From Actinomycetota bacterium (GTDB taxonomy: Bacteria; Actinomycetota; AC-67): DNA of 64,000 nucleotides. A program made the position numbers and the translations under genes. This document shows, piece by piece, positions 2-22,805 of the stretch. A model generated the notes under the pieces. The model saw only the letters and a list, made by a program, of their open reading frames with translations, was not told the DNA's origin and searched no databases. The stretch spans positions 11,148 through 75,147 of the forward strand of contig DASWIP010000012.1 of NCBI GenBank assembly GCA_036397635.1, read 5' to 3'. Within the stretch, counting starts at the first letter, position 1, and every line of letters begins with the position of its first letter.

Positions 2-2080
2 GGCGTCACCATCGACTTCCACGTCGACTACGCGTACAACGAGTTCCAGACCGGAGGCATCGAAGGTGAGCGCGTCGAGAAGGCGACGGCGATGCTTTTC
101 GTGGGGCTCCCGCCGAACGTCGGCTTGGTCGGCGAGGCGTTCAAGAACCTGTCGAGCACGCAGCTCAAGCGTGTCGGCGGCGATCCGACCAACGGCCCGG
201 TCGTTCGCTACGCGACCACGCGCGACACTTTCGTCGAGCACTGGCTGCCGGCGAGGGAGCACGGCCGCGGTCGCATCGAGACGGTCCCGCCGGGTTTCTA
301 CAAGATCCACATCGTGACCGATCACGCCGTCGAGGCGCGCCAGGCACGCGGCGAGGTCGAGTCGATCGGCATGCAGCTCGCCTCGACCGGCCCCGACGCT
401 GCGACCACACCGGGCGCGAACCTGCTCGTAGCCTCGCGGCCGGCGTGCCCGATCACCGCGAGCGGCGCCGGCTCGGGCTGCGTGTCGCGTGACGGAGAGA
501 TCGACCCATCCACCGGGCTGTGCGTCGCGCGCAACGACCAGGCGAGGATCGCGTACCGCTACTACTGCGGCGAGATCGCCTTCGCGGTGCCCTCGGCGGT
601 CGTGTCGCGCGCCGTGCATCACATCGAGCACGACGCCGATCCCGCGCGCAGCGAATGGTCGGTGTGCGACGTCCCGATGCCGCTGGACGGCTCGCCGCTG
701 GACTTCGCACGCATCGTGGATCGCGCCGACGGCTGCGATGAGGGCGCCTCCGCGTCGTCGTGGACCATCGGCACCAAAGCGCCGAGCTGCCTCGGTCCGG
801 GTGAGCGCGCCGGCTTCCCCAACGGTCATCCGACCGACGTGCACGCCACGTTCCGCAGCCTCGTGCCCGGGGGCGCGCCCGGCTCGAGCTTGCCTGCCGC
901 GGTGCTGACCTACGAGTTCGCGCTCCCCTACCTGAACACCTATACGAGCACCGGCCTCGCCTTCTCGTACTCGGTCGACAACGCGATCGTGGGCGTGCGC
1001 TTCCAGACCGGCAACCGCGCCACCGACGACGCCTCCCACGGGCTGCTCGTGCTGGACGACCCGGACGTGGACGTGACGCCGGCGCTGCAGCGATCGTCCT
1101 CGCGCGGATCGATCTTCGAGACCTGGGAGCTGATGTCGGCGAACGCGTCGGTGGCACAGCTATCGCTGATCATCATCCCAACGGCGTGGACCTCGACGAG
1201 CATGAGCCCGACGGCGCCGATCGCAACCGTGGATCTGTGCGACGTGTCGCTGCGGGTGAGCACCTTCGCCAAGCAGGCATGGGGCCAGCCGGTGATCGAG
1301 CAGGGTCGCCCCACCCAGTTCTTCCCCGTGCTCGACCGCGGCCTCGGCGACCAGATCGACCCTGGGACCAAGCGCGTGCGCGCGATCTGGGATCCGCGCG
1401 AGCAGCGCTTCGCCGACCGCGGCACCGAGCCCGAAGCGCTGCACCTCGCGGTGCAGATCCCGAAGGACACGACGCTGGACCGTTCACAGCCGCATCACGT
1501 CCGCTCGCCTCACGGCAACCCCGCCTACCTGACCGCGGCACGGCGCTGGGGCACCGACGCCCGCAGGCACGAGGGCGTGCTGCCCGCCGGATTCGAGACC
1601 TTCGACCCCGGCTACGGGCTGACCTCGCTGCGCTGCTCGGAGGGGCCGGCCGAGATCGGCGCAGGCAACGACCCCGACACGATCGCGGGATGGCAGACCT
1701 GCCGCGCGTGGAACGAGGCGCGCGAGGGCAACGAGGTCGTCGGCGGGCTGTTCGGCGACATCTGGGCGAACGGCCGGTTCGCAGGGATCCTCGCCGTCGA
1801 TCACGCGACCATCGCGCGCGCGGCGGGCAACGTCGCCTTCGAGATCGCCGATGCCGATGACGGCGGCGCGTTCGAGCAGCGCTGGGCAACCACCGGCGAG
1901 GGGCGGTACACGCGCGCGTTCCCGGTGCCGGACTTCTACGACGACCGCGCCGGCGACCTGTCGCTGTCCCTGCTCGGGGGCGCGGTCAGTGTGCGCAAGA
2001 ACGGTAACGGCCAGTACGTGCTGACCGTCGGCGCCGGGACGCCGGGCGGGACGAGCTACACGATCTCGACCGAGCTGTGA
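2..2080 (+). CDS. Large hypothetical protein, 5'-truncated by the window edge (no recognisable family)
   Basis: The frame is open from nt 2 with no stop before the ATG at 92 and continues to the stop at 2080 (ORF track 92..2080 extended upstream). Several Cys residues; likely secreted. No motif recognised. Confidence 0.5.
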   Translation, partial: GVTIDFHVDYAYNEFQTGGIEGERVEKATAMLFVGLPPNVGLVGEAFKNLSSTQLKRVGGDPTNGPVVRYATTRDTFVEHWLPAREHGRGRIETVPPGFYKIHIVTDHAVEARQARGEVESIGMQLASTGPDAATTPGANLLVASRPACPITASGAGSGCVSRDGEIDPSTGLCVARNDQARIAYRYYCGEIAFAVPSAVVSRAVHHIEHDADPARSEWSVCDVPMPLDGSPLDFARIVDRADGCDEGASASSWTIGTKAPSCLGPGERAGFPNGHPTDVHATFRSLVPGGAPGSSLPAAVLTYEFALPYLNTYTSTGLAFSYSVDNAIVGVRFQTGNRATDDASHGLLVLDDPDVDVTPALQRSSSRGSIFETWELMSANASVAQLSLIIIPTAWTSTSMSPTAPIATVDLCDVSLRVSTFAKQAWGQPVIEQGRPTQFFPVLDRGLGDQIDPGTKRVRAIWDPREQRFADRGTEPEALHLAVQIPKDTTLDRSQPHHVRSPHGNPAYLTAARRWGTDARRHEGVLPAGFETFDPGYGLTSLRCSEGPAEIGAGNDPDTIAGWQTCRAWNEAREGNEVVGGLFGDIWANGRFAGILAVDHATIARAAGNVAFEIADADDGGAFEQRWATTGEGRYTRAFPVPDFYDDRAGDLSLSLLGGAVSVRKNGNGQYVLTVGAGTPGGTSYTISTEL

Positions 2081-2096
2081 CGACTACTATGCGCTC

Positions 2097-2510
2097 GTGG
2101 CGCGCCGGATCGACTTCTCGTCGCTGACGCGCACCGAGCGCATCGCGCTCGGTGCGGGGCTCGGGTTGTTCGTCAACGGGTTCGTTCCGTGGTGGTACCG
2201 CGTGCGAACGATAGAGGGCATCGTCCACTACAACGGCGGCCTGACCGACCTCGGGATCGTCGCCGTGTTCGCCGGCGCCGCCGCGGCGATCCTGGTGGGC
2301 GCGCGCGCGAGCATCTGGCCGGACCCGGCCCCTCAGCGCGACGGAACCGTGTACGCGCTGCTCGGCGCGATCGCTTTGGCGAACCTGATCGCTCAGATGC
2401 TTCGGACCCAGGCCGAATGGATGGGCCTGTACGCCTCGATCGCGCTCGCGGCCCTGCTGCTCGCGGCGGGCATCAAGCGGCGCGCGGAACGCCGCGCCGG
2501 CTGGACCTAA
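2097..2510 (+). CDS. Hypothetical small membrane protein (about 4 hydrophobic segments)
   Basis: 137-aa ORF with a GTG start, immediately downstream of the previous gene. Hydrophobic stretches such as ALGAGLGLFVNGF and IALAALLLAAGI. Confidence 0.45.
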   Translation: MARRIDFSSLTRTERIALGAGLGLFVNGFVPWWYRVRTIEGIVHYNGGLTDLGIVAVFAGAAAAILVGARASIWPDPAPQRDGTVYALLGAIALANLIAQMLRTQAEWMGLYASIALAALLLAAGIKRRAERRAGWT

Positions 2511-2547
2511 CGCAGGATTCGCCGGCACCGGCGGCGAAGACAGCGGC

Positions 2548-3963
2548 ATGGAAGCGACTCCCCGGCGCCGCCATCTCCTGATCACACTCGGCCTCGTCGC
2601 CGTCGTCTCCGGCTTGCTGCCAGCGGCCGCGGGCCCGCAGTGGACGATCAGCGGTCGTGTCACCACGCCGGACGGTCAACCCGTGCAGGACGCCTGCGTC
2701 TGGTTCTACCCCCCCGCCGGAGACCGATTCGGCATCGTCCAGACCGACGCCGATGGTCTCTACCGCTTCAGCGGAACGGGCTCGAGGACCTTACGCGTGC
2801 TGTTCCAGGACTGTCGTCTGAGCTTCGGCGTCAAGCGCTTCGTATCCGAATGGTGGAACGACGCCGCCTCCTTCGCTTCTGCCACCGCCATCCGCACCCC
2901 GCAGCTCGATGAGGATGGCGACGATATCTCCGGCATCGACGCGGTGGTCTCCGCCGGCCACGGGATCGCGGGAACGGTTCGAGCAGCCGATAGCGGCGCT
3001 CCTCTGGCGAACGTCTGCGTCGATGTCGCTCCCATCCCGGTTCCGCCGGTCTACGGCCGGCAGGAGTTCCCGATGGAGGCCAAGACCGACAGCCAGGGCA
3101 GGTATCGGGTTGGCGTCCTCAGCCCTGGGGACTATTCGGTCGCGTTCGAGGACTGCAACGCGAACCCGGTGTACCTCAGCGAGGTCTTCGACGGGATACG
3201 GAACGGCTCGCCGACCCCGGTGACCCTCACGAGCAGCCAGGACACGACCGGCATCGATGCGAGCCTGGATCTCGGCGCGATCATCCGCGGAACCCTCCGT
3301 GACACCGCCGCCCAGCCGATCAGCAGCGCATGCGCGACGGCGTACGACGCTGCCGGACGCGAGGTCGATACCGACCGCACATCGAGCCAGGGCATCTTCG
3401 AGCTGACCCGGCTGGACACAGGCACATACCGCGTCGGCTTCATCGACTGCGCGGGGCAGGGTTACATCGGCGAGTTCTACGACGACGCGGCGACGCTGGC
3501 AGGAGCCACACCGATCGCACTCACCGCCGGTCAGGTCCGGACCGGGGTCACGGCCATCCTGGTGCACTGTTCCGACGTGGACGCCGACGCCGACGGGTTG
3601 AGTCTCTGCGACGAGATCAGGCTCGGCTCCGATCCGTTTGATGCGGACACCGACGGCGACGGATTGTCCGACGGGGTGGAGTACCACACGTACGGCACAA
3701 GCCCCGTCGACGCCGACACCGATCACGATCGGCTGGACGACGGTGACGAAGTCACCACCTACGGAGCCGATCCCCTGCGGGTCGACACCGACGGCGATCA
3801 GTTCAGCGACGGCACCGAGGTACACGGCGGCACCTGTGTCGGCGGTGTCACGGTCCCCGGCGGGTCCGATCCGACCAACGCGCTCTCGACCCCACTCCTG
3901 CCCGGCCCCGAGATCGGTCCCGGCGTCGCACTTCCGAGCGCGCCCCTGGTGCTCTGCCGCTAG
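2548..3963 (+). CDS. Secreted protein with carboxypeptidase-regulatory-like (CarbopepD_reg) beta-sandwich repeats and C-terminal thrombospondin type-3-like Ca-binding Asp repeats
   Basis: N-terminal signal peptide (LLITLGLVAVVSGLLPAAAG). Repeated 'GxVxxxxGxPlxxaxV...DGxYRf' modules. C-terminal run DADADGLSLCDE / DADTDGDGLSDGVE / DADTDHDRLDDGDE / DTDGDQFSDGTE, which matches the DxDxDGxxDxxE pattern. Confidence 0.7.
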   Translation: MEATPRRRHLLITLGLVAVVSGLLPAAAGPQWTISGRVTTPDGQPVQDACVWFYPPAGDRFGIVQTDADGLYRFSGTGSRTLRVLFQDCRLSFGVKRFVSEWWNDAASFASATAIRTPQLDEDGDDISGIDAVVSAGHGIAGTVRAADSGAPLANVCVDVAPIPVPPVYGRQEFPMEAKTDSQGRYRVGVLSPGDYSVAFEDCNANPVYLSEVFDGIRNGSPTPVTLTSSQDTTGIDASLDLGAIIRGTLRDTAAQPISSACATAYDAAGREVDTDRTSSQGIFELTRLDTGTYRVGFIDCAGQGYIGEFYDDAATLAGATPIALTAGQVRTGVTAILVHCSDVDADADGLSLCDEIRLGSDPFDADTDGDGLSDGVEYHTYGTSPVDADTDHDRLDDGDEVTTYGADPLRVDTDGDQFSDGTEVHGGTCVGGVTVPGGSDPTNALSTPLLPGPEIGPGVALPSAPLVLCR

Positions 3964-3967
3964 ACGA

Positions 3968-5557
3968 TCAGGGATAGATCGAAGCGGCGATCCCGTCCTG
4001 TCCGTTGGACGAGCCGCCCGCGGGACTGACACCGCCGGCGCCGCCGGAACCGTGCGTGGGCGGCGGTGAGTCGACGAGCGTCAGCGTCGAGCCCGGATCG
4101 CGGTAGGAGCCGACGCTCGGGCCTCCGGCACCGGCGCCACCGGCACCACCGTTACCGCCCTTGCCGCCTGCGCCGCCGTTGCCCCCGCGCCCGACCGCTT
4201 CGAGGCAGGCGCTGGCGCCGAACCCGCCGCCGCCGCCTGCGCCGCCGATCGTGCCCGGGCTACCATCCCCGCCACGCCCGCCCGCCGACGCTGCGATCGT
4301 GGTGCCCGCAACCGCCTCGACCGTCGAGCTGCGCAGGAACAGGCCGAACGAACCCCCGCCCGCAGGCCCACCGCTGCCGGCGCTGCCGCCCAGACCACCA
4401 GCGCCGCCGCCGCCGCCGCCGTTGCCGGTGCCGTCGATGAGGAACCACGCGGTCTGGCCACCACCGCCGCCGCCACCGCCGCCGCCGGCGCCGTGCGCAC
4501 CAGCAGTCCCCGTCGTGCCGGACCGACCGGTCCAGTGATCCCCCAGAGACTGAGGCGTGGACGCGCCGCCCGCGCCGTGTGTGCCGTCGGGACCCGGGAC
4601 TCCGGACCCGCCGTTGGTGCCGGGCTGACCGGTGGTTCCGGCCGCGCCGCCGAAGCCGCCCGCCCCGCCTCCAGGTCCGGAGCCGGCAGAACCGTTCGTG
4701 CCGCTGGCCGCGTACCGACCGCTCCCCCCGTTGCCGCCCCAGCGGCCGACAGCAGACGCGCCTCCCGGTCCCCCAGGTGCGCTCACATCGTTGTCACAGG
4801 CACCGGGCGCACCGTTGCCGCCCGACGCGGATGGACCCAGGACGACGCCAGGACCCGTGATCCCGTAGTTCCTTCCCGGCCCGGCCTCCACCGCGACGCG
4901 CTCGAGCCGCAGCGACGAGAAGAGCGCGCGCAAGCCGTACGCGTTCGGTGTGGATGCCGTGGGGCTCACTTCTCCTCGGAGGGCGAGCAGCTGCAGCACC
5001 ACCCCGTTGACCCCATCCGCGAGCAGCGCTTGCGGACGCCCGATGATCCGCGTGACGTTGGACGTCGCGCGGCTCCAGCCGGATCCGGCATAACCGCCGT
5101 AGATGCCGACGCCGGTGGCCGGCATCAGACCGGTCCCTTCGTCGTAGTCGCCCGAGGCGACGTACACGTCCTTCTGTTGTGATTGAGCAGCGCTCACCGC
5201 CGCCTGCACAGTTCGCTTCGGCGCGTCGATGGTCCCGGCCGCGCCGTCGTTGCCGGAGGTCGAGACGAAGATCGCGCGCGTGGGATCACCGTCGATGCCG
5301 TCGCAGTTCGCGTCCACGAGCGCCAGGTCGGGATCGTCGTCCGCGCCTGGGTTGATGGCCGGGTCCGCGTCGTTGCAGTCACCCTCGCCGGGCGTGAAGC
5401 CGTCCCCGTCCGAATCGCAGTCCAGGACGCCGCTCAGGCCAGCCTGCGCGAGCACCGCGCACAGCAGGGCCTTCGCATCATCGACAGGGTCGGCGGCTCC
5501 CGGCAGAGCCCCTCCGACCAGCGCGACCACGGCAACCAACAAGACGATCTTTCGCAC
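3968..5557 (-). CDS. Secreted Gly-rich protein with an N-terminal Cys/Asp MopE-like putative metal-binding motif
   Basis: GTG start at 5557 with SD GGAGGGGG. Signal peptide MRKIVLLVAVVALVGGALPGAA. DCDSDGDGF...GDCNDADPAINPGADDD...DANCDGIDGD motif, then long GGxGG/GGNGG tracts including GAGGGGGGGGGGQ. Confidence 0.7.
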   Translation of the reverse strand: MRKIVLLVAVVALVGGALPGAADPVDDAKALLCAVLAQAGLSGVLDCDSDGDGFTPGEGDCNDADPAINPGADDDPDLALVDANCDGIDGDPTRAIFVSTSGNDGAAGTIDAPKRTVQAAVSAAQSQQKDVYVASGDYDEGTGLMPATGVGIYGGYAGSGWSRATSNVTRIIGRPQALLADGVNGVVLQLLALRGEVSPTASTPNAYGLRALFSSLRLERVAVEAGPGRNYGITGPGVVLGPSASGGNGAPGACDNDVSAPGGPGGASAVGRWGGNGGSGRYAASGTNGSAGSGPGGGAGGFGGAAGTTGQPGTNGGSGVPGPDGTHGAGGASTPQSLGDHWTGRSGTTGTAGAHGAGGGGGGGGGGQTAWFLIDGTGNGGGGGGAGGLGGSAGSGGPAGGGSFGLFLRSSTVEAVAGTTIAASAGGRGGDGSPGTIGGAGGGGGFGASACLEAVGRGGNGGAGGKGGNGGAGGAGAGGPSVGSYRDPGSTLTLVDSPPPTHGSGGAGGVSPAGGSSNGQDGIAASIYP

Positions 5558-15148: not shown

Positions 15149-15550
15149 TCAGTCGCGTACCGGTTGGAGGCCGTAGCGTTCCATGCCCGCGACGAAAGTC
15201 ATGATCTTGGTCACCCCGAGCGCGCGCATGAGCGTGATGCTCGTGGCATCCACGTACGACAAGGGATCCTTGACGCCCGTGCCGAGGATCCCGAACGCCT
15301 CCGCTTGCATCGCCTGCGTGACCGGAAGGATCTTGAGCTGGTGTGATGAGCTGATCACGCCGAGCAGCCAGCGCGCAGCCATCGCGCCAACGCGAGGAGC
15401 CAAGAAGTCCCAGAGCCGGCCAAACACCAGGTGCGTGCTGACCCACAGCTCGTTCCCGACCCCGAACGCGAGCAGCTCCACCGCCTCATCGTGGTAGGGA
15501 TCTCGCTCGTTGACCAACGCGATCAGGTACGAGGAGTCGATGAAAATCAC
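15149..15550 (-). CDS. vapC: PIN-domain ribonuclease toxin VapC
   Basis: MIFIDSSYLIAL...D...D PIN signature. GTG start overlaps the vapB TGA stop (GTGA). Confidence 0.85.
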   Translation of the reverse strand: MIFIDSSYLIALVNERDPYHDEAVELLAFGVGNELWVSTHLVFGRLWDFLAPRVGAMAARWLLGVISSSHQLKILPVTQAMQAEAFGILGTGVKDPLSYVDATSITLMRALGVTKIMTFVAGMERYGLQPVRD

Positions 15551-15756
15551 GGAAGCGATGGGTAGAACGAGGCGAGATCGACCGGATCAGTGGGCTCGAA
15601 CGCGACCGAGCCGCAGACCGCATCGATGGGATCTTCATGGGATGGAAGCGGCTCGGGGAGGTGCGAGCGCAACACCCACCGGATCAACGCCGACTTGGTG
15701 AGGTTCTCACGCTGCGCCCACCGGGCTAACGCGAAATCGAGATCCGTGTCGATCAT
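15547..15756 (-). CDS. vapB: Ribbon-helix-helix (CopG/VapB-type) antitoxin
   Basis: MIDTDLDFALARWAQRENLTKSALIRWVL is an RHH fold, with a C-terminal tail for toxin binding. ATG at 15756 (GTG at 15759 also possible). The 126-aa track ORF is over-extended. Confidence 0.75.
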   Translation of the reverse strand: MIDTDLDFALARWAQRENLTKSALIRWVLRSHLPEPLPSHEDPIDAVCGSVAFEPTDPVDLASFYPSLP

Positions 15757-15892
15757 CACGTGGATCCGCCGCGCGCGCCGTGGCCGGCGTTCGCGTCCTA
15801 TCTGACGCATGATCTTGAACAGTGGTGAGTCCGGCGAGATGCCATCGCGCACAACCATTCGTTCCCTCCCCGAGGAAGTGTTCGTGTCGGGA

Positions 15893-15932
15893 AGTGTGTG
15901 CGTGTGCGGCTCGAGCGGCACACGCACACACT
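15893..15932. repeat. Palindromic element copy A: AGTGTGTGCGTGTGC-GGCTCGAGCG-GCACACGCACACACT (15-10-15)
   Basis: Read directly from the sequence: perfect 15-bp inverted arms with a 10-bp spacer. 115 bp 3' of the guaA stop and 137 bp 5' of the vapB start. A second copy is at 24607-24644. Confidence 0.9.
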
Positions 15933-17627: not shown

Positions 17628-19460
17628 TCACGCGCCGCTCGCCTGGCCCCCATCACCGAAGGATCTGGGCATGAGCGACCGTCCCGGCTCGGCTGCGGCG
17701 CCCTGCGGCGCAGCGGGAAGGGCCACCGAGAAAGTGCTCCCCTCGGCGGGCGCGCTGTCGAGGGTGATGGTTCCCCCCATCGCGTCCACGAGTTTCTTGA
17801 CGATGAACAGCCCGAGCCCGGCGCCGCCCGTTTCCATCCGCATCGGATCCTCGAGCCGCGTGAACTTCTCGAAGATGGTGCCGTGCTCCTTCTCGGGGAT
17901 ACCACGCCCCTCGTCGCGGACCCGGATGAGGATGCTCGGACCTTCCCGCTCGATCGAGACGTGGACGGGACTGCCCTCCTCGGAGAACTTGACGGCGTTC
18001 GAGACTAGGTGTGCGATGATCTGCTCGATCCGCAGCGGGTCTCCCATCGCGACCGTTCCGTCCGACGCGTCGAGATGGAATTCGCGAAGCGGGTTCGACG
18101 AATCGAAGGGCCGGATGGCCTTGCGCGCGACGTTCGCCATGTCAACCGCCTGGCGACCAACCTCGGGGAGACGCCGCTCGCTCGAATCCCCGATGCGCGA
18201 CGCGAGCAAGAGGTCCTCGACCAGCCTGGCCATGTGGTCGCTGCGGTCGACGATCGACTGAAGCGCCTCACGCCGCCGCTCCAGCGGGATCTCGTCCATC
18301 CGCCGCAGCAGCAGCGTCGCGTACCCTTTTATGGGCGTCAGTGGCGTCCGCAGCTCGTGTGACACGGTGGAAACGAAATCGTCCTTCAGCCGCTCGACCT
18401 CCCGCTGACGCGTGATATCGGCCGCGACGAGCACGTCGAAGGACAAGCGCCCCCGATCGTCGAAGCCCGGCCCGTGCTGCACTCGCAACCATCGAGCCGT
18501 GCCATCCGGGGCGATGACCTGCAGCTCGAGGGGATCGGTCGTCGCCGAGACGTCCAGGGACACCGCGCGCCCGTAGACGTCCTGGCCGCGGAGCAGGAAC
18601 GGCAGCGCCTTGCCCTTGGCTTCCAGCGCGCTGATCCCCGTGATCCGCTCCATCGACGGGCTCCACAACAGCACCGTGCCATCCCCGGATGCGAGCACGA
18701 TCCCCTCGCTGGAATGCTCGAGGATGCGGCTCAGCTTGGTGGTCTCCTCCTCCATCAGGCGCGAGAACTCTTTCTGCTTGACCCAACCCCGGAACGACAG
18801 GTGCAAAGCGATCGCCGGCGCAAGCACCGCGGGGAGTAGCAACGGCCTGGTCAGCCACAAAGTCACGGCCACCATGCCGACCGCGGCGTTTCCCAGGCCC
18901 ATCGCGATCGAGATCGGCGCCTCGCGCCCGAAGACGCGCGCCATCCGCTGATCGGTAGTGGCGGCGATGATCGCGGAGATGGTCAGCAAGTTGCTGAGCG
19001 TGAAGACCACCATGCCGGCGGCGATAGATACCAAGCCGGCCGTCGTCGAGAAGTCATTCTCTCCGACCGCGTGGTACAGCGCGATCGCGGGCACCACCCC
19101 GAGCGCGTACTGCCCGAGGTTGAACGCGAACTTGACCAGCGGTCGTCGCTGGATCAGCAGCGCGAGGGCGAGACCCCCGACGGACACCAGGGCCGCGTAT
19201 GCGGGCGGCAGCAAGACGATGTCGGCGACGACGGCGAGCTCGAACAGCGTGAGCAGCTCACCGGATTCGCCGTGGGTCACTCGGATCGCGACGAGCTCGG
19301 CGACTGTGGTGATACCGAGCAGGATCAGCGCCGTGCGAAGAACGTCTGCGTCAGCGGTTGGCGGGAAGACCAGGGAGACGGCAGCCAACGCAACGGCCCC
19401 CCCAACGGTGATCACACCGATCAGGAGGGGCGTGCGGTCGTTCCATCTCCCCCGGCCCAT
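17628..19460 (-). CDS. Polytopic membrane sensor histidine kinase (multi-TM N-domain, PAS, HisKA, HATPase_c)
   Basis: About 6 hydrophobic helices in the first 230 aa. PAS-like region. H-box FVSTVSHELRTPLTPIKGY. G-box GGAGLGLFIVKKLVDAMGG. ATG at 19460, 6 nt after the subtilase double stop. Confidence 0.88.
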   Translation of the reverse strand: MGRGRWNDRTPLLIGVITVGGAVALAAVSLVFPPTADADVLRTALILLGITTVAELVAIRVTHGESGELLTLFELAVVADIVLLPPAYAALVSVGGLALALLIQRRPLVKFAFNLGQYALGVVPAIALYHAVGENDFSTTAGLVSIAAGMVVFTLSNLLTISAIIAATTDQRMARVFGREAPISIAMGLGNAAVGMVAVTLWLTRPLLLPAVLAPAIALHLSFRGWVKQKEFSRLMEEETTKLSRILEHSSEGIVLASGDGTVLLWSPSMERITGISALEAKGKALPFLLRGQDVYGRAVSLDVSATTDPLELQVIAPDGTARWLRVQHGPGFDDRGRLSFDVLVAADITRQREVERLKDDFVSTVSHELRTPLTPIKGYATLLLRRMDEIPLERRREALQSIVDRSDHMARLVEDLLLASRIGDSSERRLPEVGRQAVDMANVARKAIRPFDSSNPLREFHLDASDGTVAMGDPLRIEQIIAHLVSNAVKFSEEGSPVHVSIEREGPSILIRVRDEGRGIPEKEHGTIFEKFTRLEDPMRMETGGAGLGLFIVKKLVDAMGGTITLDSAPAEGSTFSVALPAAPQGAAAEPGRSLMPRSFGDGGQASGA

Positions 19461-19466
19461 CGCTCA

Positions 19467-21365
19467 TCAACCCCAGCCGGCGTCGGCCCATTGCCGGCCC
19501 AGCCACTGGCGAGCCGACCACTGACGAGCCGACCACTGACGAGCCGTCCATTCGTCCGCGCTCCACTGACGAGCCGACCACTGACGAGCCGACCACTGAC
19601 GAGCCGACCACTGACGAGCCGACCATTGACGAGCCGACCACTGACGAGCCGACCACTGGCGAGCCGACCACTGACGCGCGGTCCACTCATCGTCGCTCCA
19701 CTGACGAGCCGACCACTGGCGAGCGGCCCACTCGTCGTCGCTCCACTGGCGAGCCGACCACTGACGCGCCGTCCATTGGCGGGCAGCCCACTGACGCGCG
19801 GTCCACTGGCGTGCCGCCCAGCGCTCGTCGCTCCACTGGCGAGCCGACCATTGGCGAGCAGCCCACTGACGAGCCGCCCACTGGCGCGCGGCCCACTGGC
19901 GCGCGGCCCACTGGCGCGCGCCCCAGACATCTTCGGTCCACTGGCGAGCGGCCCACTGACGCGCAGCCCACTGGCGGGCGTTCCATTCGTCGGCGTCCCA
20001 GCGACGCGCGTCCCAGCCCTGGCCGTTGCCCTGGCCGTTACCCTGACCGTTCCCAGGGCCGCGTCCCGGGAACATGTCGTCGTCACCCAGGTCGGGAGCA
20101 TCGGGAAGCTCGGGCAGATCTCCATCGAACCCAGCGGCCGCGGCGGCCTCGACGACGCCGGCGCCCATCGAGGCAGCGTCACCGTCCGCGATCCCGGTCG
20201 CCGTCGCCATCAGCAGGGCCTTGACCTCGTCGGGGTTCAGCTCCGGTCTGGCCGACAGCAGCAGGGCCGCCGCGCCGGCCGTGACGGCCGCCGACATCGA
20301 GGTACCCGATCCCTTGAAGTATGCGTCCTCGACGCGCGCCGACGCGTTCTCGGCGTCCACGGTCGAGCCGGGAGCGCGCAGCGAGACCAAGTGCTCGCCC
20401 GGTGCCGCGAGGTCGGGCTTCGGGTCGCCCCAACGGGTGGGGCCACGACCCGAGAACTCCGAAACCAGGTCGTCGTCCACCTCGGGCGTGCCCATGTCGT
20501 CGACCGAGCCGGCGGTCAGCAGCATCGGGTCCTCGCCCGGCGAAGTGATGGTCACTTCGTCGGGTCCGTCGTTGCCCGCAGGCACGACCACGACGACCCC
20601 ATGCGACCACACCGTGCGCAATGCCCAGGACAGCGGATCCAGGTCCGGCGGTAGCGGCGACTGCGAATCGATCGCGAGAAGCATCACGCGGACGTCGTAG
20701 AGCTCCGCGGCCATGTCGACGAGCTGCACCCCTGCGAGCACCTGCCCCAAGCTGGTCGAGCCGTCTGCGCCGGCCACCTTGATCGAGACAAGCTCGGCGC
20801 CGGGAGCGACGCCGACGTATCGCCCGTCGGACGCGGCGCCCGTACCCGCGATCAGACCGGCTTGGAAGGTCCCGTGCCCATAAGTATCCGTCGCGTCGTC
20901 TTCACGCGTCACGTTCGCCGAGGCCACCACGCGCCCGGCGAGGTCGGGAACGTCGGCGACTCCGGTGTCGACCAGCGCGACCCTGACGCCTTCACCTGTG
21001 ATCCCGCCGGCCCACAGGGCCGTCGCGCCGACCTCATGCGGGTACGCGGTGACAAGCGAGCCGCCGTAGGACTCGGACAGCAGCCCCATCGGACGGTCGG
21101 GGACGACGTAAGCGATGCGCGAGAGCTGCTCGAGACGGTTTTCGGGAACGCGCGCATCCACACCGCCGACGATCGGCAGCGAGCGCTCGACCGATCCGCC
21201 GACGCGCTCTGTCATCTCGGCGGCCGAACCGGCGTCGGCCCCGATGACGATCACGTCGACGAGGCGCCCGACGGCCTCAACCGCGGGAGCTGTCGTCAGC
21301 GCGAGCAGGAAGGCGACGACAACCGCAGTAACCGTCCTGGCCTTGCCGTCTCGATGCAGTGTCAT
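19467..21365 (-). CDS. Secreted subtilisin-like (S8) serine protease with a C-terminal tail of 37 tandem pentapeptide units ([S/A/T]ARQW)
   Basis: Signal peptide MTLHRDGKARTVTAVVVAFLLALTTAPAVEA. Catalytic D (VALVDTGV), H (YGHGTFQAG) and S (GSGTSMSAAVTAGAAALL). A GQGNGQGNGQG linker is followed by the W-repeats, which run to the stop. Confidence 0.88.
   Translation of the reverse strand: MTLHRDGKARTVTAVVVAFLLALTTAPAVEAVGRLVDVIVIGADAGSAAEMTERVGGSVERSLPIVGGVDARVPENRLEQLSRIAYVVPDRPMGLLSESYGGSLVTAYPHEVGATALWAGGITGEGVRVALVDTGVADVPDLAGRVVASANVTREDDATDTYGHGTFQAGLIAGTGAASDGRYVGVAPGAELVSIKVAGADGSTSLGQVLAGVQLVDMAAELYDVRVMLLAIDSQSPLPPDLDPLSWALRTVWSHGVVVVVPAGNDGPDEVTITSPGEDPMLLTAGSVDDMGTPEVDDDLVSEFSGRGPTRWGDPKPDLAAPGEHLVSLRAPGSTVDAENASARVEDAYFKGSGTSMSAAVTAGAAALLLSARPELNPDEVKALLMATATGIADGDAASMGAGVVEAAAAAGFDGDLPELPDAPDLGDDDMFPGRGPGNGQGNGQGNGQGWDARRWDADEWNARQWAARQWAARQWTEDVWGARQWAARQWAARQWAARQWAARQWSARQWSDERWAARQWTARQWAARQWTARQWSARQWSDDEWAARQWSARQWSDDEWTARQWSARQWSARQWSARQWSARQWSARQWSARQWSARQWSADEWTARQWSARQWSARQWLGRQWADAGWG
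19470..20075. repeat. Coding tandem repeat: about 37 copies of a 15-bp unit (CCACTGRCGAGCCGR on the plus strand), then a short GNGQ (9-12-bp) repeat
   Basis: Seen directly: many consecutive near-identical 15-mers from 19470 to 20024, and ccctggccgttgccctggccgttaccctgaccgtt at 20025-20075. Confidence 0.95.
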
Positions 21366-21367
21366 GT

Positions 21368-21748
21368 TCACGCCGGAACCCCCGCAAGCAGGTTGCCAAC
21401 CACGGCCAGCAGATCCTCGGTATCGAATGGCTTGTTCATGTAGTAGTCGCAGCCTCCGCTCCAGCCCTTCCACGTCGACGACGGATCGTCAAGCGCAGTC
21501 AGCATGAGAACTGGGATGTAGCGCGTCCGCTCGTCGTTCCGCATCGTCTTCAGGACCTCGAAGCCGTCCATGCGTGGCATCATCACGTCCAGGATCACCA
21601 GCTCGGGCGTCATCCGTTCGAGCGCAGCGATCAGGGCCCTGCCGTCGGACAGGCTCAGCACCTCGTACCCTTCCAATTCGAGGGTGTCGTGGATCAGGGT
21701 TCGGGTCGGGGCGTTGTCGTCGACTACGAAGATACGGGGCCTGGACAC
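21368..21748 (-). CDS. Stand-alone response-regulator receiver (CheY-like, no output domain)
   Basis: GTG start with SD AAGGGAG. IFVVDDNAPTRTLI...LILDVMMPRMDGFEVL...KPF receiver motifs. The stop lies 2 nt before the subtilase ATG. Confidence 0.88.
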   Translation of the reverse strand: MSRPRIFVVDDNAPTRTLIHDTLELEGYEVLSLSDGRALIAALERMTPELVILDVMMPRMDGFEVLKTMRNDERTRYIPVLMLTALDDPSSTWKGWSGGCDYYMNKPFDTEDLLAVVGNLLAGVPA

Positions 21749-21896
21749 TGGTTCTCCCTTCGATCCTCACGAAGTAGCGCGGTGCAACGCCGGCCTCAGC
21801 GCTCCCAGTGGATATCGACGGAGACGGGACGAACCTGGATGGAAAGTGGTGCTATTTGTGCAACCCGGAAGGACTAGAAGCTCCGATCCGCGCAGG

Positions 21897-22805
21897 TCAA
21901 GTCGTCCGGAGCAGTTCCAGATCGTCACGATCGAAACGATCGAAATCGTCGGGAGGGCCGCCGCTGAGGAGCGAGGCGACCGATATGTCCTCGACCGCCC
22001 AATACATCACGGAGTCTCGGTACCGCGAATGGTGCGGGTTCTGAGGATCCTCGTGGTCGGAACGGCTCTGGTAGCCGATGTTCAACAACGCGAGCAGGTG
22101 TCCCGCCTCGTGGACCACCACCGCCCGCTCGATGGCGCCGGGTTGGACCAACGTGCTCGCGGCGCTGCGGATCCGGTCGATGAAGATCGCCGCGGCGGAA
22201 GCCCGGTACGCAACCCCAAGCGCCCCCTCCTCGTCGGCGAGCTCGCCGTTGAGGTAGAGCAGATACATCGTCGCGGTCGCCCCCGATGACCGATGGTCGC
22301 GGTGCTCACGCTCGAGGGCCTCGATGTCCTCGAACGAGTAGCGCGAGCGCGTGGGGGAGATCTCGTCGCTGCGCACCACGCTGACGCCGTCCGGTTTGCG
22401 CGCTTCGCGCCTCAAGACCTGGGCGAGGTGGTCGAGCGCGGCGGGGCTGGGCGCGCGCCCGGCAACGTAGTCGACCTCGACGATCAGCCGGGTCGCCGGG
22501 GAAGCCTTCAGGTACGCCCGAGCCATCGCGCCGACCCCGCCCGCATCCACATAGGCGGGCGCGTTGGGTCCCGAGGGCACGACGGTCGTCGTGGGCGTCG
22601 AGGGACCATCCCCGGGGCGGGACGCACGGGCGCCGGGCGAGCTGCTCGAACCGGGACCTCCGGGTGCGGTGGCGGGAACCTCGTCACCTGGGAGCAAGCT
22701 CTCGTCGCCGGTGTTGCCGGGCGGCGCGGCCGGCGAGCACGACACGAAGACGAACGCAGCGGCGATCGCCGCGAGGAGGATCGATCGGGCCGGGGGGTTT
22801 CTCAC
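21897..22805 (-). CDS. Putative zinc metallopeptidase lipoprotein (HExxH)
   Basis: GTG start at 22805 overlaps the guaB3-like TGA (GTGA). Signal/lipobox-like LLAAIAAAFVFVSC. VVVHEAGHLLAL is an HExxH motif. The upstream part of the track ORF is a spurious extension. Confidence 0.6.
   Translation of the reverse strand: MRNPPARSILLAAIAAAFVFVSCSPAAPPGNTGDESLLPGDEVPATAPGGPGSSSSPGARASRPGDGPSTPTTTVVPSGPNAPAYVDAGGVGAMARAYLKASPATRLIVEVDYVAGRAPSPAALDHLAQVLRREARKPDGVSVVRSDEISPTRSRYSFEDIEALEREHRDHRSSGATATMYLLYLNGELADEEGALGVAYRASAAAIFIDRIRSAASTLVQPGAIERAVVVHEAGHLLALLNIGYQSRSDHEDPQNPHHSRYRDSVMYWAVEDISVASLLSGGPPDDFDRFDRDDLELLRTT

Follow-up and report, generated by a model that had tools for sequence, protein, structure and literature searches.

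We propose that a secreted S8 subtilase and the membrane sensor domain encoded by the next gene probably form an undescribed signal-input module, whatever the output that this sensor controls. The pair is not described in any of the database families or papers that we found. Of 69 informative actinobacterial loci, 68 have, directly 3′ of the Trp-tailed S8 gene and on the same strand, a gene that starts with a MASE9-like membrane domain of about 210 residues. A profile of this membrane domain matched the partner gene in the 68 loci, with E values between 1e-27 and 1e-64, and no other ORF of the flanks was matched. The two genes are separated by short gaps or overlap (−39 to +56 nt, database gene calls), and the pair occurs in no fewer than five unrelated genomic neighbourhoods, across classes of Actinomycetota. 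Such an adjacency is far beyond chance.

The cytoplasmic part of the partner varies: it is a histidine kinase (HK) in 29 cases, HK-REC in 5, GGDEF-EAL in 26 and SpoIIE/PP2C (SpoIIE-HATPase_c_2) in 3. The output is swapped while the input domain stays constant, and the conserved unit is therefore the protease plus the membrane sensor domain. Sequence comparison thus indicates that protease and sensor are coupled at the level of signal input. The original prediction placed the protease between the two halves of a two-component pair; this is true at the locus under study, but the conserved core is the protease with the MASE9-like domain, and GGDEF-EAL and SpoIIE/PP2C also serve as outputs. Its proposal that the three genes are functionally linked is supported by gene order: the succession of response regulator (RR), S8 and HK is found in L001 and L007, the closest relatives, as well as in distant Micromonosporaceae known from culture, namely Actinoplanes (L023, L036, L047), Pseudosporangium (L032) and Couchioplanes (L087). 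The diversity of outputs speaks against its alternative, control of the protease by the kinase.

The S8 tree groups by output class of the partner, with an HK-REC clade nested among GGDEF-EAL partners, and S8 and sensor distance matrices correlate (Mantel r 0.50, p 0.001). Complementarity between the charge of the tail and that of the sensor outer loops was weak (rho −0.28, p 0.025, not phylogenetically corrected). Single MAGs (L010/L017 and L008/L073) can contain two pairs that differ in tail and in output, suggesting that such paralogous pairs are insulated from each other.

The locus at the origin of this analysis lies in the window, i.e. the whole stretch of 64,000 nucleotides that was analysed. 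As originally predicted, it consists of three minus-strand genes, in the order RR, S8 subtilase and HK, with gaps of 2 nt (AC) and 6 nt (TGAGCG). The regulator gene (21368..21748) has a GTG start with an AAGGGAG ribosome-binding site 5′ of it, and codes for 126 aa. The gene for the subtilase pre-pro-enzyme and its Trp-periodic tail (19467..21365) has an ATG start and codes for 632 aa, and that of the sensor kinase (17628..19460) for 610 aa. Pfam profiles agreed with the predicted identities, finding Response_reg in the first product, Peptidase_S8 in the second, and PAS, HisKA and HATPase_c in the third. A longer S8 gene starting at a GTG at 21473 was rejected, because homologues begin at the Met equivalent to the ATG; it would also overlap the regulator gene. 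We infer co-transcription of the three genes from two features, their spacing and the absence of terminator-like sites. The 148-nt intergenic region 5′ of the regulator gene (21749..21896, minus strand) is the likely site of the promoter or operator of the cassette. It contains a block common to the window, L001 and L007, which reads ...CTTCTAGT...A(T/A)TAGCAC..TCC(A/G)TCCAG...CGATA in their alignment; neither a sigma-70 consensus nor an Rfam match was found in these 148 nt. The surrounding stretch is made of co-directional housekeeping genes, all on the minus strand (rimI-tsaD-groES-guaB3 ... guaA-pcrA).

The S8 protein is, as first proposed, a subtilase with a signal peptide. This predicted Sec peptide (aa 1-31, 21273..21365, minus strand, with APAVEA before the cleavage site and VG after it) was read by eye from a K/R n-region, a hydrophobic core and an A-x-A-like site, and aa 8-24 form a helix in the AF2 model. 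A subtilisin-type N-terminal propeptide and the catalytic domain are modelled with a pLDDT of 80-95. The catalytic domain (aa 124-393, 20187..20996, minus strand, Pfam coordinates) scores 139.1 bits with Peptidase_S8 (PF00082), far above the cut-off of 21.8, which places the protein in the S8 family. The Asp-His-Ser triad is in subtilisin order, and D133, H164, the oxyanion N265 and S356 were invariant in 13 of 13, then in 86 of 86 aligned sequences. Homologues number more than 2000. The initial impression that no family could be named was right: the best NCBIfam model, mycosin (TIGR03921), reaches 157.1 bits for an equivalog cut-off of 278.75. Mycosin identity was rejected on this score, and also on the lack of a C-terminal transmembrane anchor, the tail having no hydrophobic segment. 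No ESX/type VII secretion Pfam family was found among the gene calls of seven loci. Among solved structures, that of Tk-SP comes nearest (3AFG; 30-36% identity; phmmer E 5e-51, Foldseek E 9e-30).

The predicted 185-aa tail of 37 pentapeptides is real. The C-terminal tail (aa 447-632, 19470..20027, minus strand; TRF and unit table) is made, over aa 447-631, of 37 units ending in Trp, which recurs at exactly every fifth residue with no indel, and it closes with a final Gly. The most frequent units are SARQW (12 copies), AARQW (9) and TARQW (4), together with acidic variants such as SDDEW, and the DNA is a tandem repeat of period 15 with 27-32 copies (TRF). Disorder is predicted for the tail: AF2 gives a pLDDT of about 25 and no fold, and aa 421-632 have no strands. 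A right-handed quadrilateral beta-helix was rejected on the same grounds, and with Trp central, Arg would face inward in such a fold. A pentapeptide-repeat protein (A(D/N)LXX beta-helix) was rejected as well, no Pentapeptide family being matched in the Pfam scan; the sole match in the tail was the low-complexity HC2, under its cut-off. A period-5 Trp tail is present in 236 of 240 homologues. Only the Trp and the five-residue period are conserved, the other positions being lineage-specific. Within each protein, units are homogeneous, and they are kept at the protein level despite synonymous codon changes; the unit sequence is under selection. Relatives from Chloroflexota have Trp-repeat tails of period 6-7 and no adjacent sensor, and the tail therefore has some role independent of the sensor.

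In the kinase, HATPase_c scores 103.2 bits, HisKA 65.6, PAS 33.5 and MASE9 21.3. It has the residues of a HisKA-type kinase, with the phospho-acceptor H368 in SHELRTP and the NAVKF, DEGRGI and GGAGLGL motifs. Its MASE9-like membrane sensor domain (aa 1-228, 18777..19460, minus strand) has eight predicted helices, instead of the six first counted; two are short (70-83 and 86-103) and surround P84-P85 (mean pLDDT 72). Residues E74, R105, R106, K110, F113, N114, G195, P206 and P215 are conserved in the family, and among them E74 and N114 are polar residues of the membrane core. With outer loops of only about 8-15 residues, the domain can extend no more than a short way out of the membrane. MASE9 has been described as having eight membrane segments, of which two are short and make a hairpin inside the membrane; its outer loops are short, polar residues lie in the membrane core, ligand binding is proposed to take place within the membrane, and the outputs are HD-GYP and GGDEF-EAL (Galperin and Chou, bioRxiv 10.1101/2021.11.05.467447). 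The eight helices, the minimal outer loops and the intramembrane E74 and N114 fit this description, as do the short hairpin pair and the several outputs. Partners from relatives scored 24.1, 27.3, 22.5 and 28.8 bits with MASE9 (PF20972), so that, with the window kinase counted in, two of the five scores exceed the gathering cut-off of 24.3 and that of the window kinase does not.

The regulator was rightly called receiver-only, with no DNA-binding output: Response_reg (91 bits, residues 6-117 of 126) is its sole Pfam domain. The acidic pocket D10/D11, the phospho-acceptor D54, T84 and K106 are present, as in single-domain (CheY-like) response regulators. Adjacent orthologues beside S8 and HK in relatives (38-64% identity) stop 0-25 aa past the receiver domain. 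Such a regulator adjoins or is fused in about 60% of kinase-type pairs (about 20 of 34 loci), and its position varies: 5′ of S8, 3′ of the kinase, or fused to the kinase. It is an optional, movable third component. The 64-kb window shows no downstream target on which the regulator could act.

Communication between protease and sensor might possibly involve docking of the tail, pentapeptides derived from it, or release of a ligand from another substrate. We tentatively prefer the reading, possible while short of probable, that the S8 protein is a dedicated extracytoplasmic partner, or co-sensor, of the MASE9-like domain of the adjacent kinase. Its observed base is the gene structure, the domains, the conservation of the pair, the interchangeable outputs, the intact active site and the selection on tail units. 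The protease would be exported via Sec and matured by removal of its N-terminal propeptide, and the unstructured tail would hold it at the outer face of the membrane and contact the sensor domain. A change of state of the active protease or of the tail, such as substrate load, tail occupancy or tail trimming, would alter this contact and thereby switch autophosphorylation of H368. The phosphate would then pass to D54 of the regulator, which, being devoid of output domain, may act through contact with another protein, or serve as a relay or as a phosphate sink.

It is rather unlikely that the protease makes the ligand from another substrate, either an envelope or environmental protein or wall peptides, with the tail anchoring it to wall or membrane near a sensor that reads the product. 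Adjacency and output swapping speak for this scheme as they do for the co-sensor, and the invariant active site, the sensorless Chloroflexota tails (in keeping with a general anchoring role) and a weak, non-significant fold resemblance of the membrane domain to ECF S-components, which bind small ligands inside the membrane, are in line with it. However, it leaves unexplained the unit differences between paralogous pairs and the peptide-level selection, and no conserved candidate substrate gene adjoins the pair in the gene calls of seven loci.

We regard as doubtful that the tail is a pheromone array, in which a polyprotein made of signalling pentapeptides would be joined to the enzyme that processes it. 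The protease would cut its tail after each Trp, releasing some 37 near-identical x-A-R-Q-W peptides, read as an autocrine or quorum signal by the intramembrane MASE9-like receptor. At P1, subtilisins prefer residues that are aromatic or large and hydrophobic, and in Bacillus the Phr pentapeptides are excised by subtilisin, Epr and Vpr, all of them S8 enzymes. The predicted disorder would make the tail accessible, the active site is intact in all 86 sequences, the strict period has no indels, units are homogeneous and lineage-specific, and paralogous pairs of one genome carry different units, as pherotypes do. Tail disorder and unit selection are compatible with a shed ligand without being specific to it: homogeneous units are equally expected from a repetitive structure or from concerted evolution. 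Against it also stand the Chloroflexota tails without sensor, the absence of a linked peptide importer or exporter in the gene calls, and the cost of spending one protein molecule per signal burst. If true, paralogous protease-receptor pairs would be insulated peptide channels into kinase, c-di-GMP or PP2C outputs, and a new type of bacterial peptide signalling would be widespread in Actinomycetota.

A link at the output level, with a two-component system sensing envelope stress and merely regulating the neighbouring protease gene, is very unlikely. Protease genes beside envelope-stress two-component systems, as in MprAB-PepD or CssRS-HtrA, are a known pattern, and the operon-like spacing fits, but the regulator lacks a DNA-binding domain, half of the loci have a partner that signals through GGDEF-EAL or PP2C rather than transcription, a nearby regulator is absent from many kinase-type loci, and the input domain is conserved while the output is not. 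Lastly, the absence of any functional link, the genes being adjacent through descent or chance within a co-directional housekeeping stretch, where co-orientation admittedly says little, has hardly any probability left, being effectively refuted by the recurrence of the pair in 68 of 69 loci, at least five neighbourhoods and several classes.

Several known systems resemble parts of this module. Mycosins (MycP) are also envelope-associated S8 subtilases of actinobacteria, but the window S8 has a subtilisin-type propeptide, its nearest solved relative is Tk-SP, and it has neither a C-terminal anchor nor nearby ESX genes. Tk-SP, from Thermococcus kodakarensis, carries a folded C-terminal domain where the window S8 has its Trp pentapeptide tail, and we know of no sensor partner for it; propeptide and catalytic domain are in common (PDB 3AFG, 9UES). 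MprAB-PepD and CssRS-HtrA/HtrB likewise associate a two-component system with the gene of a secreted serine protease. Their proteases are of the HtrA type (S1C with PDZ), and their DNA-binding regulators control the protease gene, whereas here the protease is S8, the regulator consists of a receiver alone, and c-di-GMP or PP2C modules can take the place of the kinase; the locus is thus not of this envelope-stress type. In the Bacillus Phr-Rap-Spo0F pathway, exported precursors are cut by S8 proteases into pentapeptides whose final target is a receiver-only regulator, which makes it the nearest analogue of the shed-peptide idea of the original prediction. However, Phr precursors are encoded by separate small one-peptide genes, and the peptides are imported by Opp and act on cytoplasmic Rap proteins, whereas in the present case the protease itself carries the repeats and no Opp- or TPR/Rap-type gene was found in the gene calls around seven loci, so that the locus does not belong to Phr/RRNPP-type signalling.

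The sensor shares with MASE9 its eight helices, short hairpin, short outer loops, charged or polar membrane residues and promiscuous outputs, but the window protein is under the cut-off, its relatives straddle it (22.5-28.8 bits), and the consulted parts of the MASE9 description (bioRxiv 10.1101/2021.11.05.467447) do not mention a protease partner. The closest match for the probable working of the module is found in intramembrane-sensing kinases that depend on an accessory protein. In LiaF-LiaS, BceAB-BceS, YycHI-WalK and LpqB-MtrB, the sensor is nearly devoid of extracytoplasmic domain, and a dedicated partner, extracytoplasmic or in the membrane and encoded by an adjacent gene, is thought to deliver the signal. 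DbfQ-DbfS belongs to the same class, with a sensor and an adjacent extracytoplasmic or membrane partner (bioRxiv 10.1101/2025.03.24.645060). The S8 protein has no sequence relationship to LiaF, BceAB, YycHI, LpqB or DbfQ. Unlike them, the partner is here a subtilase with an apparently intact active site and a Trp-periodic tail, and, together with the input domain, it serves not just kinases but GGDEF-EAL and PP2C outputs as well.

The protease gene and the gene downstream of it form the conserved core of this system. Around six S8 homologues with 43-71% identity to the window's, a multi-TM PAS histidine kinase was found directly downstream in all six, in differing neighbourhoods. We added 80 further loci from a scan of species-representative genomes. 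Word-indexed protein searching, with the membrane domain of the kinase as query, gave 3 fragments only; in its place, a local profile was built iteratively from the first 235 residues of the window kinase and run on the fetched loci. The profile matched the same-strand ORF directly after S8 in 68 of 86 loci (E 1e-27 to 1e-64) and, across all flanks, no further ORF except at one Chloroflexia locus. The 18 unmatched loci comprise 11 whose sequence runs out no more than 260 nt past the S8 stop, 6 from Chloroflexota and 1 actinobacterial. The gene order put forward in the original prediction is thus conserved for S8 and its adjacent sensor gene, the pair being present in 68/69 informative actinobacterial loci, from lineages that include Acidimicrobiia, Frankiales, Mycobacteriales, Streptosporangiaceae, Kineosporiaceae and Micromonosporaceae.

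The output attached to the sensor varies: HisKA-HATPase (29 loci), PAS/GAF-GGDEF-EAL (26), kinase-receiver hybrid (5) and PAS-SpoIIE-HATPase_c_2 (3), with 5 more partners truncated by contig ends. A tree of the S8 catalytic domain groups by partner class, and the hybrid-kinase clade is nested among proteins with GGDEF-EAL partners, which indicates that outputs were exchanged while the pair was kept. Distance matrices of S8 and of the membrane domain are correlated (Mantel r 0.50, p 0.001). Two MAGs carry two pairs each, with differing tails and outputs: GSNWS with a kinase (locus L010) and GASWR with a kinase-receiver hybrid (L017) in one, ARQWA with a kinase (L008) and GQSWY with SpoIIE (L073) in the other.

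In the window, re-examination returned the same three genes in the same layout as originally predicted, all on the minus strand: the receiver-only regulator (21748..21368, 126 aa, GTG start with AAGGGAG 8 nt ahead, TGA stop), the S8 subtilase (21365..19467, 632 aa, ATG start, 2 nt after the regulator TGA) and the kinase (19460..17628, 610 aa, ATG start, 6 nt after S8). A longer reading of S8 from GTG 21473 was dropped, because the first Met of homologues corresponds to ATG 21365. Pfam gives Response_reg only for the regulator, in which the canonical residues D10/D11, D54, T84 and K106 are present, Peptidase_S8 for the protease (139 bits), and PAS, HisKA and HATPase_c for the kinase, whose H368 sits in SHELRTP, plus a sub-threshold MASE9 (21.3 vs 24.3 bits). 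No further kinase, receiver or second module was found in the 64-kb window, and no Rfam match between 15000 and 25000.

The cassette lies within a long minus-strand gene run of a genome of ~68% G+C, in the order rimI, tsaD, groES, guaB3, lipoprotein-like gene, cassette, guaA, PIN toxin pair, pcrA. A promoter and terminator scan found none within or directly flanking it. The spacer ahead of the regulator gene is 148 nt long and holds a relatively A+T-rich block (…CTTCTAGT…TAGCAC…TCCrTCCAG…CGATA…) conserved between the window (21790-21880, minus strand) and two relatives, L001 (7450-7560) and L007 (5440-5540). No match to the sigma-70 consensus was seen in this block, which may be a candidate promoter or operator of the cassette; such a spacer would fit a separate cassette promoter, without proving one. 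The lipoprotein-like gene between guaB3 and the cassette (21897-22805, minus strand, 302 aa) has a GTG start overlapping the guaB3 stop, a signal/lipobox ...AFVFVSC and a zinc-protease-like HEAGH motif at aa 232, with no match in Pfam or NCBIfam; its place is conserved in L001, L003 and L007, and it is not found beside S8-sensor pairs elsewhere. Between guaA and pcrA, a VapC-like PIN-domain gene and a small upstream partner ORF (15149-15927, minus strand) are a toxin-antitoxin pair inserted into the housekeeping stretch.

Next to kinase-type pairs, receiver-only regulators that share 38-64% identity with that of the window are variously placed: upstream of S8 (L001, L007, L011, L023, L032, L036, L047, L054, L085, L087), divergently upstream (L015, L017) or directly after the kinase (L006, L024, L039, L056, L059). 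L014, L017, L022, L028 and L040 have a less similar receiver (29-32% identity) fused to the C-terminal end of their kinase, and about 14 kinase-type loci lack a regulator in the vicinity. The third part is thus common but has no fixed place. The complete trio of Micromonosporaceae belongs to a wider signalling island, whose REC-HDOD and REC-HD-GYP proteins are candidate partners of the receiver-only regulator. The island of Actinoplanes and Couchioplanes (L023, 2944-9905; L087, 1235-15585) contains PAS kinases, REC-HDOD proteins and one REC-HD-GYP, and this gene content hints that the receiver-only regulator may feed c-di-GMP turnover there.

AlphaFold2 (AF2) models two parts of S8 at pLDDT 80-95, a propeptide-like alpha/beta unit at the N-terminus and the catalytic domain. 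Among solved structures, Tk-SP from Thermococcus in its pro-form (3AFG) comes nearest, at 30-36% identity, and databases name the homologues only 'S8 family peptidase' or 'AprX'. The best NCBIfam model, mycosin, scores 157 bits vs a cut-off of 278.75; with no C-terminal anchor, no ESX context and a differing architecture, this identity was rejected. D133, H164, N265 and S356 are invariant in 86/86 aligned family members, so that proteolysis, judging from the sequences, is part of S8 function.

The tail spans residues 447-631 and consists of 37 five-residue units with Trp last in each and zero indels, mainly SARQW (x12), AARQW (x9) and TARQW (x4), interspersed with acidic units (SDDEW, SADEW, TEDVW). 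Seven different 15-mers encode the nine AARQW units, and the peptide has therefore been kept through synonymous divergence rather than by recent slippage alone. In the tail (19470-20027, minus strand), GCT encodes 17/30 of the Ala residues in second place in the unit, and CGT 15/29 Arg; such heavy use looks unusual for a genome of 68% G+C, and avoidance of repeat instability and translation tuning are both possibilities. Long ORFs over the repeat (19071-20654, plus; 19421-20182, 19351-19686 and 19687-19986, minus), reading PLTSRPLTSR... or RLVSGRLVSG..., were set aside as by-products of the 15-nt periodicity.

AF2 on full S8 gave no secondary structure or fold in the tail (pLDDT about 25), and Pentapeptide Pfam models did not match it; a pentapeptide-repeat beta-helix is rejected for now on that model. 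An HC2 histone-like match, below its cut-off, is a low-complexity artefact, and neither Pfam nor NCBIfam holds a model for this tail. The period-5 Trp tail was present in 236 of 240 S8 homologues sampled from >2000 database hits, with a median of 16 and a maximum of 41 in-phase Trp pairs; across the 240, 4383 Trp-Trp spacings measure 5 and 333 measure 10. Conservation is confined to the Trp, the period and, three positions ahead of the Trp, a small residue; the remaining positions are lineage-specific between proteins and uniform inside each protein. Units read ARQWS, ARSWV, ARAWA or GRLWN with kinase partners, and GSAWN, GAAWN, GAGWN, SAAWN, GSSWY, GNSWY or GSQWA with other partners. In L056 (6800-7620) and L057 (7000-7641) the tails read RAPLG.../ATGRP..., a frameshifted translation of the Trp repeat, probably through assembly error or a real frameshift.

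Six Chloroflexota relatives also have Trp repeats, and none has a sensor adjoining S8. Four are from Anaerolineae, with period 6-7 (L068, L071, L077 and L086; DGRFWS/DGGFWS, GSYGLWS, SFDSWAD, AIGSWSG); L069 (SVSWN) and L084 (degenerate xxSWx) retain period 5. L069 encodes a protein with two membrane-domain copies ~2 kb upstream of S8 (889-3969).

For the sensor, the AF2 model has eight predicted helices (mean pLDDT 72, on an input of four sequences only), where the original prediction had counted six; a short helix pair (70-83 and 86-103) flanks P84-P85. Outer loops in the window protein are about 8 residues long, and family conservation is highest at E74, which lies inside a helix, at cytoplasmic R105/R106/K110 and at F113/N114. 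For charge complementarity between tail and outer loops, the correlation is weak (rho -0.28, p 0.025, by a statistic that ignores shared ancestry). MASE9 is described as eight segments, two of them short and in a hairpin, with a polar membrane core, multiple outputs and a proposed ligand-binding site within the membrane; the defining paper names just one characterised protein, which is poorly expressed (bioRxiv 10.1101/2021.11.05.467447). The window sensor matches that description in helices, hairpin, polar core and outputs, and family scores against Pfam MASE9 fall on both sides of the cut-off, hence our term MASE9-like. Foldseek with the sensor model (aa 1-240) found nothing significant in the PDB; the best, non-significant neighbours were ECF-transporter S-components (RibU 5KC0/3P5N, TM 0.42-0.58, E 0.6-2), a likeness that may point to a small-ligand pocket inside the membrane.

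As protease and input domain stay constant while outputs are swapped, their functional link is most simply placed at signal input, where the sensor membrane domain would read the protease, its tail or its product. We tentatively prefer S8 as a co-sensor docked on the membrane domain via its tail. The Trp-repeat tails of Chloroflexota, which occur with no adjacent sensor, point to anchoring as a more general role. This favours such docking, or else release of the ligand from another substrate with the tail only as anchor, a reading we hold to be unlikely. A tail that carries specificity is suggested by the selection acting on entire units and by the differing units of paralogous pairs. This again favours docking, or the pheromone proposed in the original prediction, i.e. 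release of tail pentapeptides as the sensor ligand, which appears quite unlikely. The constancy of protease and input domain under swapped outputs disfavours a two-component system that does no more than control expression of the protease gene, and it effectively excludes a neighbourhood by chance.

Bacterial signalling proteins commonly carry MASE-type membrane sensor domains, whose signals are, to our knowledge, mostly unknown. One MASE9-like subfamily is now tied to a dedicated, adjoining extracellular protease predicted to be catalytically intact, a concrete and testable handle on what the sensor reads. The same input pair leads to phosphotransfer, c-di-GMP and PP2C partner switching, and with three output types is thus an example from nature of modular rewiring; the period-5 Trp tail is a protein feature so far without annotation. 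Culturable carriers (Actinoplanes, Couchioplanes, Micromonospora, Dactylosporangium, Nocardioides eburneus) make genetics feasible. Were the pentapeptides a pheromone, the S8-sensor system would be categorically new. A search of incompletely covered literature for the S8-sensor pair or the Trp tail returned nothing relevant. Functionally, the pair resembles kinases of the intramembrane-sensing type that require an accessory partner, namely LiaFS, BceAB-S, YycHI-WalK, LpqB-MtrB and DbfQ-DbfS, although it belongs to none of these families.
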